A DNA stretch of 63,989 nt, filler included, from Collodictyon triciliatum (lineage: Eukaryota), in assembly GCA_043381765.1 (NCBI GenBank). It is 27 parts of 27 records of this genome, joined end to end, with 100 filler letters (N's around TTAATTAATTAA, not from the genome) between each part and the next. Parts side by side here need not be neighbours in the genome. Positions count along the whole stretch, not along the records: positions 9,602 to 11,898 come from JBHJMP010009132.1; 26 more parts are not named here. One strand, 5' to 3'. The position numbers and the translations under genes are program-made. The notes beneath the pieces were generated by a model. It was not told the origin of the DNA, did no database searches, and saw nothing but the letters and a program-made list of their open reading frames with translations. Position 1 is the first letter of the stretch, and every line of letters begins with the position of its first letter. Below are positions 2,405-12,045 of this stretch, one piece after another.

Positions 2405-3476
2405 CATACTTTTTTCCATTCTGTACACCATAATAACCACCATTGCCATCGGCATTGATAGTTATCTGCGAAATACCATTTGTAAATGCAATTACTTTAC
2501 CGATTGGACTACCGTCTTTTGCCACACCTGTAACTCTTTCTGACGCAAACGTGGATATTGGAGTATGTCCAGATGGTACTTTTTGTTCACCCTTCATATA
2601 TTCAGCCATAGCCCTGTTTTGCACTTGCAATTTTTTTATAATATCTAGTCGTTTTATTAACTCCTGTTCGTCTTCATCTGCATATTGAATGTACTGTGCC
2701 CCGATTTTATCAAATTCTTTGATTAATTCCGGCTTTTTCATCGTCGCATATTCTTGACCATAATAATATTCTAATCCCTCTCGAGTAGATACCTCAGGTA
2801 TATAAAATTCTTCTTCTTGTGTAATAGGATTAATTGTCAACGGATTGATATTAATTCCATATTTCATATCAACATCTTCATTATCATCATATTGTTGTTG
2901 CATATCATTTACTTCATCTTCAGTCAATCTTGAAAATCGTGGGTCTCTTTGCGGTCCTAGCGCATTTGCAATTTGAATATCTCCAGCTCTGATTTCTGCT
3001 CGACCAGCTACACCCGGTTGTCTTTGCAGTCCTTGCAATTCACCTTGTACAGCTGCTAGTCTTTGGTTTGTTGTTTCCAATGCACCAGTCATCGCAGTTT
3101 GAATTTGCGCAGCTGATGGCCCACGTGCAGCTGCAGCTGCAGGTGCAGGCGCTGGCTGTTGAATATTTGATATTGCACCAGATACCGCATCTAGTTTTCT
3201 ATTAGTACCTACTAATGCATCTGTAAATGCTCTTTTCATTGCCTCCGTAAATTGTTGAAGTCCCATTTGTACACCCACAGGTGGGTCAGCCTGACCTGCT
3301 GGTGCTTGCGCTGCTTGCTGTCTTGGAGGTCCACTAGACGATGAAGCAAGTTGTGATGAACTACCTGCGCCTCCAGGTGAACTAGAAGCGGATAATGTAC
3401 CAGCTCCTGGTCTTGGTGCTAAAGATGATGGTGGTGCGCCTTGAATTTGTGGTTGCTTTCCTGGTGGTTGACTCAT
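2405..3476 (-). CDS. Intronless hypothetical protein (P/A/Q-rich N-terminus, coiled coil, acidic region), 3'-partial, possibly viral
   Basis: ORF of more than 350 codons. The ATG is preceded by the AT-only spacer ttttttatttaataatat, 19 nt after the upstream stop codon. Confidence 0.75.
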
Positions 3477-3495
3477 ATATTATTAAATAAAAAAA

Positions 3496-4704
3496 TTATT
3501 TATCAAGTCGAATATCTAAATAAAATTTACCTTCTACAACCCAAATTCGTAGTGTATTAGGTGGGACTCTATTGCTGTACTTTTTTTTTACTTGCCACTG
3601 AAAGCTTTCCTCCTCTGTAATCGTTGGACCCCTACGCTGTCCTCCTTGCGTTTCATCTACATATTCATATTGAAATGCCGGTTGATCTAAATCTTGTGGG
3701 TCTGCACGTATTATTTGCAAACCTTGAATATAAGGGTCATCTTCATCTTCTTTTTCATATTCCATTGCTATCAAAGCTCGTTCATATTCATTTTCAATCA
3801 TCGGTTCATATTCTAATAATAATAGTGGTGGTTCAGGTTGTACTGTGGCCTGGGAGCTACTTGAGGAACCTGGTGGAAGTCGTAATTCTAATGGAACCAT
3901 TGCATTGTAATACTCAGGACCTTTAATAGATAGTCCTTTTTTTTGATATATTTCTATAATTTTTTGTGTTGGTCCATTTGAAACATCATATGAGTATTTA
4001 TATTTAGTCATTTGCCCTTTTGCATTTTCTCTTTCGTCTTCAATAATTTCAATAAAGCGGTTTCGAATCGGCGCAGGTAATTGTTTTTCTATTATATATT
4101 CAAATCTAAAATTTAAATCATATTCATCTACTTCTAATTTCAATTCTGGAACACCATCTTTATAATTATATGGATTCATATAATATTCAGTTGTTGGTAA
4201 TTTTGATACATCTTCATCTAATAAATATATTCTAGGGTTAGATAATTTGTCATAAACAGCACTACTACTCGCGCAAATTTTATAAAAATCAACAGGCATA
4301 CCTTTTTTTGCAATATGTAGTTCTTTTAAAAATTCAAGGCGTCGTTCATTTTCTGGTTTTCTGAGGACTCTATCCATTGATGTCATAAATTGGGGTAATG
4401 TTGAAAAAGTTACAGAATGTAAACTGCCAGGACCAAGTTTAAAATCGCTTATTGCTCTTTGGTCTTTTTCTGAAGGTGTATTCCATACAATCTGAAGATA
4501 TTTATCCCAAAGTTGATCCACACCATTGGCTATCATTCCACGTGGATAATTTCCTGATTTAATATTTGCCTTTTGAATTCTTTCTAGAAATGTAGCAAAA
4601 TCATCATTAAATATAGGTCTCAAATATTTATTATAAAACTGTTCCATAGTTAAATTTTCAGTGGGAAACAAATTTCGAGCTAGACTTGTTTGCGGTGAGG
4701 GTCC
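3496..4704 (-). CDS. Intronless hypothetical protein, 5'-partial, possibly viral
   Basis: About 400-codon ORF open from the contig edge, with strongly A/T-ending codons and no introns. Confidence 0.75.
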   Translation of the reverse strand, partial: GPSPQTSLARNLFPTENLTMEQFYNKYLRPIFNDDFATFLERIQKANIKSGNYPRGMIANGVDQLWDKYLQIVWNTPSEKDQRAISDFKLGPGSLHSVTFSTLPQFMTSMDRVLRKPENERRLEFLKELHIAKKGMPVDFYKICASSSAVYDKLSNPRIYLLDEDVSKLPTTEYYMNPYNYKDGVPELKLEVDEYDLNFRFEYIIEKQLPAPIRNRFIEIIEDERENAKGQMTKYKYSYDVSNGPTQKIIEIYQKKGLSIKGPEYYNAMVPLELRLPPGSSSSSQATVQPEPPLLLLEYEPMIENEYERALIAMEYEKEDEDDPYIQGLQIIRADPQDLDQPAFQYEYVDETQGGQRRGPTITEEESFQWQVKKKYSNRVPPNTLRIWVVEGKFYLDIRLDK

Positions 4705-6722: not shown

Positions 6723-7782
6723 GGAGGTCAGCTGCTTGTGAGTGTAATACTAAAAGAATTGGTGAATGATGACTGTTTGGGAATGTGTTAATACATATGA
6801 AAAACTATTAATTTCTTTGTGTCAATTTTGTATCTGACGAGTAGTAAATTAGTGTCTGTATTTGCTTACGGGATGACTTCGAGCCCATTCGATAAAGTCT
6901 TTCTCGTTATGAAAGAAGGATGCCACGTAATCTGCGATGAATTTAATCCGTGCGATTTTTCTGATATACGTTTTTTTGTTTTGATTTTAATTACTTTATT
7001 TCATGTTATGTTATGTTATGTTATGTTATGTTATGTTATGTTATGTTATGTTATGTTATGTTATGTTATGTTATGTTATGTTATGTTATGTTATGTTATG
7101 TTATNNNNNNNNNNNNNNNNNNNNNNNNNNNNNNNNNNNNNNNNNNNNTTAATTAATTAANNNNNNNNNNNNNNNNNNNNNNNNNNNNNNNNNNNNNNNN
7201 NNNNTGTTTTTTGTGTTTTTTGTGTTTTTTGTGTTTTTTGTGTTTTTTGTGTTTTTTGTGTTTTTTGTGTTTTTTGTGTTTGATCTCCTGCATTTCACAA
7301 GTCCCGCTTTTCAGGGAAATTGGGTTTTTGGCCTTTCACTGAAAATTCTCAACTCCAATTTTAGGTTAGTATGAGTGCACTACAATGACCCAAACTGGGA
7401 TACTCGGACAGTGATAGGCGGGGTTAAAGGATTTATTTAAAATGCTATCATTTATATATATTTATAATAATTATTATCATTTCAGTCCGCCATATTTGCA
7501 ATATTATATTGTAAAAGGGTAGATATATATTATTTCCAGATTGTAACATACGGTACATTCATTTCTGAACTTGCATTAATCCGAAGCGATCTGTGTTTAT
7601 CCGCCAAAGTCTTATTTTCGCTCGCAATAGTAGAGCAGAGGAGCAAAAGCGTGATTGATTCATGACTCAAGGTCTTTTACCTCATAAACGTATACTCATC
7701 TCTTCAGCTTTCATTCTTGCGGATAAAAAAAAAAAAAAACCACAAAGAGGATCATAGAAGGTTTGCTTCTGAATTCCGGGCT

Positions 7783-9464: not shown

Positions 9465-9778
9465 GTTATTCAAATTAAAATTCATATGCTGACACAATTA
9501 TNNNNNNNNNNNNNNNNNNNNNNNNNNNNNNNNNNNNNNNNNNNNTTAATTAATTAANNNNNNNNNNNNNNNNNNNNNNNNNNNNNNNNNNNNNNNNNNN
9601 NTATTATTGTTATTATTGTTATTATTGTTATTATTGTTATTATTGTTATTATTGTTATTATTGTTATTATTGTTATTATTGTTATTATTGTTATTATTAT
9701 TGTTATATAACATGTCGCGAGCCATTAGCCAACCTTTCCTCGAATCAAACCTTTCTGCTAACTTTATTCTTGTGGTAG

Positions 9779-10625
9779 GGCTGGGAAAACCTGCGCAATA
9801 TGGACATATCCAACAGTCGTGCTGACAAGAATGATTTTCTTATACAAGCGCCATTTATAATCCTTTTTTTTTGTTCCAATTTTATTTTATGACTTTGGCC
9901 ATGAACTCTGTATGTAAAAAAGAAAGAATAAACAACCCGTGTGACTCTCCACACCTTATTCATTTTAACCGGCCTTCCTCCTGTTCGACAACCTATTCTG
10001 CCTATACGAAACGAAACTTTTTGAACAGGCTCTTTGACTCATAACACATTCTACAATCCGGCCAAATACACCACCGCATACAACCCGACCAACGGGGTCG
10101 GGCAGCAACTTATCCAAACCACTTGCGATGGGCTGAAGATGTCTCTCCAGGTATCCATATATCCACGAACCCACAAGTTCATGTTATCATTTTAGTACCA
10201 TCCTTCCTCTTCCTTGTCTTCACTCAACCATGGGAAATCATCTTCAGTTTTGGGATGCAAGCGGAAATCGTAGCCTAGTCGACGCAATCCGGTCTTACTA
10301 TAGCGACTGTGAGATGTGCATCTTCACCTTTGATGCTACAAACTTGGCGACTTTGGATAACCTGGACTTTTGGTATCAGAGTTTCATGGATTACCTCAAA
10401 ACCACAAGAAAAACAAACTTTCCATTCGCTCTTATCGCAACAAAGATTGAGAGCACTCCTGCTGGAAGCACCTACAAGGAGGCTGGTCTTGCCTGGGCGA
10501 AGGCACGCGGAAATATGCCTTTCTATGAAGTGTCTGCGCGTGACAATCTCAACATGCAGCCCACGCTCCAGGCTATCTCGAAGCAGCTCTTGACTCGATA
10601 CTATTACCCTACAAATCCCCAATAA
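9779..10625 (+). CDS. Divergent Rab7/Rab9-like small GTPase, 5'-partial; exons 9779-9805, 10048-10150, 10248-10625
   Basis: G1 AGKT, effector YNPTNG, G3 LQFWDASG, FPFALIATK and GNMPFYEVSAR resemble Rab7 motifs (FPFVVLGNK, NIPYFETSAK). Confidence 0.85.
9806..10047 (+). other. AT-AC (U12-type, minor spliceosome) intron
   Basis: 5' ATATCC, branch-like TCTTTGAC at 10031-10038 and 3' CAC. Removing it restores GKTCAIWT|FYNPAKYTTAYNPTNG, collinear with Rab7. Confidence 0.8.
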
Positions 10626-11294
10626 AAGGATAATACACGTTTATAAACTCCAGATAATATGATGGGTATTTAAGGAGCTTGTGGGCAAGGGAAAAAAAGA
10701 GAAACTGTAATTGGCACGCCAAGAATGATATATTTCTTGTAAGCAGGTAGAAATAGGCCTCAATCACATAATTTTTGTTCTTTTTTAAAATTATTTTATT
10801 TTTGGCTTGGTCTTGGTCTTGGTTATCTATTAGCTTCAGGATTTGGTTATTGATATTAATTGTTATAGCGCAACACCAAACAATCCTTAAATCAAAAATC
10901 TACCAAATAGCCTCAAACTTAATACTTGTTTGAATCTTATCCACCTAATTCGATATTTATATACGGGGTAGTAAGTGGAAACAGGAAAAGAAATAAATGT
11001 TCCTGAGACTGTGCGCTACTTTTGCTATTGAAGAGGTATATACTATAGCTGCAATGTGTCCAAATGAAGGAGAAAAAAAAAGGCATGCGGTGTAGCAAAC
11101 GGTACTATATATTCCTGGTCAACAAATATATTGATTTTTTTTTGGAGGAGAAAAAAGATAAACAGAGCACAAAAACATTATGTCGCATGATTTTATTCAC
11201 CTTTATTTTTAACCCACCTACAAGAAGAAATAATATATTGACAGACAGTGATTCAAGCAATATCCATCGGTGTAATCATATAAGATTTTGTGAT

Positions 11295-11759
11295 TGAAAT
11301 TTAAGTAGGCACGAAATCTCATCTGCTTTCTTGCGCTTCACTATGGTTTATATATATTGAACTTAACATATATGTGTCAAAAGGAAAATATAAATCATAT
11401 CTAATTCGATTTTTTTTTTGTAGGTATATCATAAAAAAATTCTGAGAAGAGAAAAGAGATTACGAATTTGCAATAAATTCGCACCAAAGTGTTCAATTTC
11501 AATCGTTGGGCAAGTCGACCACCTCAACGGTAGTTCAAATGATTCAGCCATACGAACTTCATGGTATTTCTTCTGTAGATTATTCTCAATTTTTCGAAGA
11601 TTGTGAGGATTGAAATGTTCTGTGGATGGTTTGACGATTCAATAGATGTGAAATTTAATGCCAAATAAGTTCTGGTTTAAAAACAATGGTATATGTATAA
11701 ATGATGTACCATTTGACATGCCATCATCATCCAAATTCAGGCTCAGGTCCAAATCAACT
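11295..11759 (-). CDS. 3' exons of an unknown gene
   Basis: GT-AG bounded open segments (DLDLSLNLDDDG; EHFNPHNLRKIENNLQKKY...). Confidence 0.4.
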
Positions 11760-12045
11760 ATTTTGTTGTTGTTGTTGTTGTTGTTTTGTTATTGTTTTGT
11801 TGTTGTTTTGTTGTTGTTTTGTTGTTGTTTTGTTGTTGTTTTGTTGTTGTTTTGTTGTTGTTTTGTTGTTGTTTTGTTGTTGTTTTGTTGTTGTTTTGNN
11901 NNNNNNNNNNNNNNNNNNNNNNNNNNNNNNNNNNNNNNNNNNTTAATTAATTAANNNNNNNNNNNNNNNNNNNNNNNNNNNNNNNNNNNNNNNNNNNNAA
12001 CAAAAACAAAAAACAAAACAAAAACAAAAAACAAAAACAAAAAAA

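Follow-up and report, generated by a model that had tools for sequence, protein, structure and literature searches.

A U12-type AT-AC intron with off-consensus signals in a Rab7-like gene, and the minor spliceosome of its host genome

Organization of the locus

The window, that is, the whole stretch of 63,989 nucleotides analysed here, consists of 27 short contigs with N linkers between them. The host contig occupies positions 9602-11898, and its locus is the single match in the whole genome. It carries a divergent Rab7-like gene with the following features:

9755..9778, plus strand: 3' end of the upstream intron, phase 2, with a U2-like branch GCTAAC (9757-9762) and the acceptor AG (9777-9778)
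9779..9805, plus strand: 27-nt exon with the end of the P-loop (AGKT); the length is that of Rab7 exon 2 and the sequence matches the Diphylleia rotans protein P0124
9806..10047, plus strand: predicted U12-type AT-AC intron, 242 nt, phase 2, at Rab7 codon 27
9806..9813, plus strand: 5' splice site ATATCCAA, consensus from +1 to +6, with AA replacing TT at +7/+8
10031..10042, plus strand: branch TCTTTGAC (10031-10038) followed by TCAT; the putative branch A is 10037
10045..10047, plus strand: 3' splice site CAC, with C at -1
10048..10150, plus strand: 103-nt exon with switch I; the Rab7 counterpart has 100 nt
10151..10247, plus strand: 97-nt GT-AG intron, phase 0, at the site of Rab7 intron 3; the exon ends in CAG and the donor is GTATCCAT
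10248..10625, plus strand: last exon of the divergent Rab7-like GTPase, with the stop at 10625

The upstream intron has the position and phase of intron 1 of the Rab7 gene found in the same genome; no plausible donor for it was found 5' on the contig, and this donor and exon 1 lie off the contig. An ATG at 9713 was rejected as the start, since its frame stops past the junction. The extra codon of the 103-nt exon is common to the window gene and P0124 and adds one residue ahead of switch I. The donor of the intron at 10151-10247 resembles that of U12 introns. A second intron of the minor type was nevertheless rejected here, as this intron has AG at -2/-1 and no YTTRAC branch near its end; its Rab7 counterpart moreover starts with GTACGG, and the intron is read as one of the major type.

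The last exon belongs to Pfam Ras (E 6e-12), its best PDB matches are Rab7, and among the 30 in-genome matches compared the window gene is second-best to Rab7, after Rab7 itself. In a full HMMER search P0124, a protein of the D. rotans transcriptome, was found to be 66% identical to the window gene product (E 4e-50) and was the only match above 50% identity among the best 150 of 1108 matches; a word-indexed search for homologs of the last exon gave no match among its 3 candidates. Both proteins lack the C-terminal prenylation cysteine, and in both the switch-II Gln is changed to Asn and NKxD to TKIx (N to T). Canonical Rab7 is distinguished by the C-terminal Cys and intact DxxGQ and NKxD motifs, which the window gene does not have. 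Judged by its sequence, the gene is classed as a Rab7-like paralog and not as canonical Rab7, and its product may be a non-lipidated, slow-hydrolysing protein.

Two side observations concern other sequences. At 2406-4704, on the minus strand of the window, there are tandem long intron-less ORFs of 358 and 402 aa, unlike the intron-rich host genes, which possibly come from a virus-like or mobile element. The database protein P0002 joins a Rab1-type N-terminal part to a Rab7-type rest and is probably an assembly chimera.

Splice signals and position of the junction

The consensus of canonical U12-type AT-AC introns is RTATCCTT at the 5' splice site and TTCCTTRAC at the branch (10.1101/2020.10.12.336362, PMC2846911). 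The donor at 9806 agrees with the core RTATCC (+1 to +6) and departs from the full RTATCCTT through the AA at +7/+8, breaking the donor rule applied in PMC2846911. The branch TCTTTGAC agrees with TCCTTRAC at 7 of 8 positions and is close to the 3' end, 10 nt remaining between the predicted branch A10037 and the end of the intron. There is no pyrimidine tract adjoining the acceptor and no G at +5. Given the base composition of the window, ATATCC, TCYTTRAC (within 4 offsets) and YAC would all be present by chance, at a junction which homology fixes, with a probability of about 2e-8. The donor/branch/acceptor motif scan of the window gave three candidates, the two others being without a convincing reading frame. 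An AT-rich segment at 7411-7526 on the minus strand, which starts with ATATCTAC and has TCCTTTAAC near its CAC end, also has no convincing reading frame; it is a possible second AT-AC intron of the window.

For the host gene, 2958 in-frame, stop-free donor/acceptor pairs were enumerated. Eight of them have GT-AG or GC-AG ends, four of each kind. Switch I is deleted by all four GT-AG pairs, in agreement with the original prediction that no GT-AG solution keeps both the frame and the effector loop, and by two of the four GC-AG pairs; the other two GC-AG pairs keep switch I, but their donors are non-consensus and residues are added. With a generic Rab7 profile the products were not well separated: the AT-AC product scored 82.5 bits, the best GC-AG product 80.7 and the best GT-AG product 72.0. 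The alignment of P0124 with the AT-AC product is gapless across the junction, which fixes the removal at 242 nt, and its score is 634, compared with 624 for the best GC-AG and 509 for the best GT-AG product. Three placements with non-canonical ends outscore AT-AC by 1-2 points, via a single residue. Because ACAT is common to both intron ends, five placements (9804-9808) yield an identical mRNA, and 9806/10047 is the only one of the five with ATATCC...YAC.

GC-AG splicing at 9793/10028 keeps the frame and comes close on the generic profile, but its donor GCGCAA is non-consensus and the gapless match to P0124 is broken. The other alternative, a pseudogene in which the decaying intron stays unspliced, is opposed by the intact coding exons and by their 66% identity to an ortholog that is expressed. 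Taken together, these two explanations are highly improbable. On strong but indirect support, the predicted 242-nt AT-AC intron at 9806-10047 is regarded as real, and its ends, branch motif and CAC acceptor, as originally proposed, are borne out by sequence and homology. In two of six runs, which are possibly RNA and may instead be DNA or derive from other strains, the fractions of transcript words found were 0.48 and 0.44, the expected values being 0.43-0.51 if the intron is spliced and 0.79 if it is retained; these fractions are given no weight in the argument.

Origin of the intron

A search of the genome for Ras-family members yielded 165 matches; 30 were retrieved for comparison, and one of these is the canonical Rab7 of this genome. 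The first intron of this gene is of the GT-AG type, in phase 2, and is followed by a 27-nt exon and then by an AT-AC intron; a 100-nt exon separates the latter from a further GT-AG intron, in phase 0. The AT-AC intron follows the second base of codon 27 and has the textbook signals ATATCCTTTT and TCCTTAAC. All three introns of the window gene have the same sites and phases as those of Rab7, and the window intron thus shares its position with a clear U12-type intron of an in-genome homolog. From these shared positions we infer that the window intron is most probably a copy inherited from Rab7, in which both signals have decayed.

In plant Rab7 genes, too, the second exon may be 27 nt long and precede an AT-AC intron; a literature search gave no confirmation of this, and no relevant report of a U12 intron in Rab7 was found in the literature. 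The Rab7 sequence was uninformative for the lineage. No AT-AC intron was found at the Rab7 site in 80 metagenome Rab loci, a sample skewed to intron-poor genes and transcripts and lacking the P-loop region in 14 of the loci. A GT-AG intron was found exactly at the site in two of the 80, which are Rab7-like (L199, L200), and 4 nt downstream of it in at least three loci checked (L155, L174, L186), which are fungal-looking; the label fungal for metagenome Rab7 loci is our own reading. The placement 4 nt downstream apparently also holds for the GT-AG intron of loci L163 and L180-L182. A GT-AG intron at or near the site is a possible outcome of minor-to-major conversion or of a slide.

That conversion or replacement may occur elsewhere bears on a further explanation, according to which the window intron is a former U12 intron now partly or wholly spliced by the major spliceosome, i.e. 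an AT-AC minor-like intermediate. Its donor and branch are both off-consensus, and in human minor-like introns the loss of the branch CC pair cuts minor-type branch use (PMC11347168). However, the intron has C at -1 and an intact ATATCC, it lacks the G at +5 and the pyrimidine tract next to the acceptor, and recognition of AT-AC introns by the major spliceosome is described as poor (PMC7367187). We consider the minor-like explanation unlikely, and an inherited intron of the U12 type is preferred.

Two further observations concern other Ras-family genes. Phase-0 AT-AC introns lie in two divergent Rab1-like paralogs (L070:1501-1741, plus strand; L094:231-467, counted on the minus strand), between I and WDTAG, with the donor ATATCCTTTC and the branch TCTTTAAC. 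In addition, the Ras-family search of the genome gave dozens of long open frames of 500-1500 aa that have no introns and include a Ras/Roc-like domain, which suggests a large Roco family.

Components of the minor spliceosome

A single match in the genome was obtained for each of the four minor snRNAs: U6atac (75.7 bits), U12 (72.1 bits) and U11 (55.3 bits) above the Rfam cut-offs, and U4atac (47.4 bits, E 2e-6) under its cut-off of 53. U4atac and U6atac pair at -32.4 kcal/mol though both deviate from the Rfam consensus. The 5' end of U11 is unchanged and starts with AAAAAGGG. The branch-binding region of U12 reads canonical GUAAGGAA, so that the compensatory change sought there by the original prediction is not present. 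Of the two minor-specific protein families searched, CENATAC was found (E 7e-20), and its only match at E <= 1e-10 (36 candidates) is that of D. rotans, 58% identical, which places the host organism near Diphylleia (CRuMs). The other, zf-U11-48K (PF05253), gave no match among 8 candidates, which is not evidence of absence given the short model (25 residues) and the fragmented assembly (14,576 contigs). The finding of U11, U12, U4atac, U6atac and CENATAC supports the view that this lineage keeps U11/U12, and by homology the minor snRNA set is complete and mostly canonical.

No report of the minor snRNA set of CRuMs was found in the literature; supplementary species tables may hold one. In the main texts of PMC10639083, PMC11347168, PMC11039992 and 10.1101/2021.09.28.462139, as far as these were accessible, CRuMs are unmentioned.

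The single U6atac match has GCCGA in place of the consensus AAGGA. This altered box was rejected as a new feature, since it is the published CC variant, [GU]CCGA, of Acanthamoeba, Physarum, oomycetes, cnidarians, Trichoplax and Physcomitrella (PMC2396436). In 2008 the variant was described as hard to explain, because it is unable to pair with the conserved donor; Acanthamoeba and Phytophthora have it, yet their donors could pair with AAGGA (PMC2396436).

Branch types across the genome

A scan for the full donor, followed by TCYTTRAC and then YAC, gave 63 matches; the reversed control gave 19, and our own estimate of chance is about 20. The 57 distinct perfect-donor/branch pairs, which contain chance matches biased to T-rich branch forms, are divided into TCCTTRAC (34/57), TCTTTAAC (13/57) and TCTTTGAC (10/57). 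By these counts, the TTTGA branch is a tolerated minority form, without a compensating change of U12.

These results bear on the likeness to Physarum suggested originally, that is, on a transformed system with a TTTGA consensus, a changed U12 and newly gained minor introns. TTTGA with A at -11 fits the Physarum motif and the range of distances in which its A lies, TCTTTRAC accounts for 23 of the 57 pairs, and in the relaxed scan described below it is in excess (83 matches versus about 43 expected). On the other hand, the sole U12 match has an unchanged branch-binding region and does not read GCAAAGAA as in Physarum (10.1101/2020.10.12.336362). TCCTTRAC, and not TTTGA, is the usual branch, with 34 pairs versus 10 for TCTTTGAC; CCTTRAC was reported in 20 of 3,648 perfect-donor introns of Physarum (10.1101/2020.10.12.336362). 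Instead of a massive recent gain there are about 80 AT-AC matches above chance, compared with 1,830 AT-AC introns in Physarum (10.1101/2020.10.12.336362), and the window intron was probably inherited from Rab7 and not gained. A Physarum-like system is therefore not supported and is very improbable for this genome. The roughly 80 tight-pattern matches above chance also agree with the earlier statement that no expansion is evident, and suggest low hundreds of AT-AC introns in all, GT-AG minor introns being uncounted in this inference.

Relaxation of donor positions +7 and +8

In a relaxed scan ATATCC alone was required at the donor, and the counts were taken from the match listings. With TCCTTRAC there were 65 matches, 24 with TT, 10 with T plus another base and 31 with a non-T base at +7; the non-TT matches are 41 of the 65, with about 25 expected by chance. 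With TCTTTRAC there were 83 matches, 14 TT and 69 non-TT (about 39 non-TT expected by chance). The reversed-pattern controls gave 21 (TCCTTRAC) and 33 (TCTTTRAC) matches and undercount chance, ATATCC being three times as common as CCTATA. Our own chance estimates, from 416 kb of masked genome sequence, are about 28 and 43, respectively, with a wide error as they rest on 17 and 26 background counts; TT stands at +7/+8 in 31 of 314 background donors. After correction about 21 TT and 12-16 non-TT matches are left in the TCCTTRAC class, and about 10 TT and 30 non-TT (with a wide error) in the TCTTTRAC class.

A coding filter was passed by 18/25 TT and 18/43 non-TT candidates of the TCCTTRAC class, by 9/15 TT and 10/23 non-TT candidates of the TCTTTRAC class (loci of 30 of the 83 matches) and by 231/774 null pairs, implying that about one third of the non-TT matches are real. 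The filter is a rough one: the true Rab7 intron did not pass it, and for the window intron it picked a wrong frame. A predicted non-TT intron in a katanin gene, with the donor ATATCCAC, falls exactly between residues 197 and 199 of 5zqm_A and is confirmed by contiguous homology. The Pfam scan of 40 flanking exons gave a match for 13; FH2, isochorismatase, LUC7 and hydrolase matches end or begin, on one side, at a non-TT candidate junction. The LUC7 candidate donor, ATATCCAA, is identical to that of the window, and a PDB check of the LUC7 junction found nothing. Two paralog pairs were noted with the same AT-AC site and different bases at +7/+8 (L140/L234, AC versus GT; L103/L229, TT versus TG), which hints at a drift of these positions.

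Genome-wide, then, the relaxed +7/+8 positions of the original prediction are supported by the excess of non-TT matches and by the katanin intron, and about one third to one half of the AT-AC donors may be without TT. Going by the published consensus, this share would be above that of animals and plants. It is possible, though we doubt it, that the window intron is an individual drifted U12 case and that the lineage-wide relaxation is mostly chance and no greater than in other eukaryotes. The undercounting by the reversed-pattern control, the passing of the coding filter by 18/43 non-TT candidates versus 231/774 null pairs, and the restriction of the +7/+8 counts to this genome speak for such a case. 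However, the excess survives the correction, with 12-16 non-TT beside about 21 TT in the TCCTTRAC class, one non-TT intron is confirmed, and exons of LUC7, FH2, isochorismatase and P-type ATPase adjoin non-TT candidates. An individual case would be compatible with the core account of the window intron and denies the lineage-wide part alone.

Pairing with the snRNAs and proposed recognition

The duplex of the window donor with U11 is weak, -2.3 versus -6.2 kcal/mol for the Rab7 donor. The computed duplex of the window branch with U12 has 11 bp, including a G.U wobble and four pairs from TCAT, and -10.3 versus -7.3 kcal/mol for the Rab7 branch. G10036 is bulged in the computed duplex, and the register with A10037 bulged is our own reading. 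A stronger U12 duplex (-13.1) lies about 85-100 nt from the 3' end of the intron, and energy alone therefore fails to single out the branch site. A stretch at 9940-9965 is complementary to the branch-binding loop of U12, more strongly than the proposed branch, but it leaves no A bulged and is distant from the 3' end of the intron. Any 3' extension of the branch pairing was found in 14/43 non-TT versus 6/25 TT candidates, i.e. there is no general link with weak donors. By inspection, the CC-variant U6atac complements the donor at +4/+5 only. In a preprint on the structure of the U11 snRNP, U12-branch pairing is described as driving recognition, and donor conservation beyond U11 as possibly reflecting U6atac (10.1101/2023.12.22.573053).

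The account which we hold, with good confidence as a whole, is that of an inherited U12 AT-AC intron with drifted signals which is removed by an ordinary minor spliceosome. An old U12-type intron of Rab7 would have been copied into the divergent paralog at duplication and would then have drifted to the donor ATATCCAA and the branch TCTTTGAC. Its removal would be due to U11/U12 and U4atac/U6atac, with U12-branch pairing as the main driver of recognition; the change of C to T in the branch would become a G.U wobble, and the following TCAT would add four pairs. The donor would need little past +1 to +6, i.e. three U11 pairs and protein contacts. The CC-variant U6atac would have no complement for +6 to +8, leaving weak selection on +7/+8, and these positions may have loosened because this pairing was lost. 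As CC-variant species exist with AAGGA-complementary donors, the variant is at most permissive and does not force relaxation. The window intron would thus act as an ordinary minor intron, filed as a variant since it failed the strict donor rule.

It is tempting to speculate, as no more than a tentative extension, that diphylleids (CRuMs) have a minor spliceosome rich in introns, and that in about half of the AT-AC introns only a six-base core of the donor is left. The reason would be that +6 to +8 are no longer read by the CC-variant U6atac; recognition would have shifted to the branch site and to proteins, and the U11-48K zinc finger may have been lost or have diverged strongly. If this is true, the Rab7 pair, in which a textbook intron and a doubly degenerate one occupy one site within a single cell, is a ready test of why the CC variant works. 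Taken alone, the window intron belongs to a known class and is an off-consensus member of it. The part worth pursuing is the lineage-wide donor relaxation beside the CC-variant U6atac: the coincidence of the variant with many non-TT donors makes the puzzle of 2008 (PMC2396436) testable. A complete minor snRNA set is also documented in a CRuMs protist, and classifiers whose training relied on human motifs would count too few minor introns in this genome.

Comparison with known systems

The divergent paralog beside canonical Rab7 resembles the lineage-specific Rab7L paralogs described in Blastocystis (PMC5608401) and Monocercomonoides (PMC6759080). It retains three intron positions in common with the in-genome Rab7. 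A difference is that its only close relative among the best 150 of 1108 matches is the D. rotans protein.

With canonical U12 AT-AC introns the window intron shares the AT-AC ends, ATATCC at +1 to +6, a branch A 11 nt from the end, phase 2, a conserved position and the lack of a pyrimidine tract, and the genome shares with canonical U12 systems the U11 5' end and the U12 branch-binding region. It differs from them in the AA at +7/+8, in the T replacing the second C of the branch and in a U6atac without AAGGA. The GCCGA of this U6atac places the genome with the CC-variant species; unlike Acanthamoeba and Phytophthora, for which AAGGA-complementary donors are reported (PMC2396436), it combines the variant with frequent non-TT donors.

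The transformed introns of Physarum polycephalum (Larue, Elias, Roy) are similar in the TTTGA motif, whose A lies 9-12 nt before the intron end, the Physarum case also includes a small GTPase gene (10.1101/2020.10.12.336362), and the CC-variant U6atac is common to Physarum (PMC2396436) and this genome. In contrast to Physarum, U12 here is without the compensatory change, most branches are canonical, the intron is probably inherited, and there is no evidence for thousands of minor introns.
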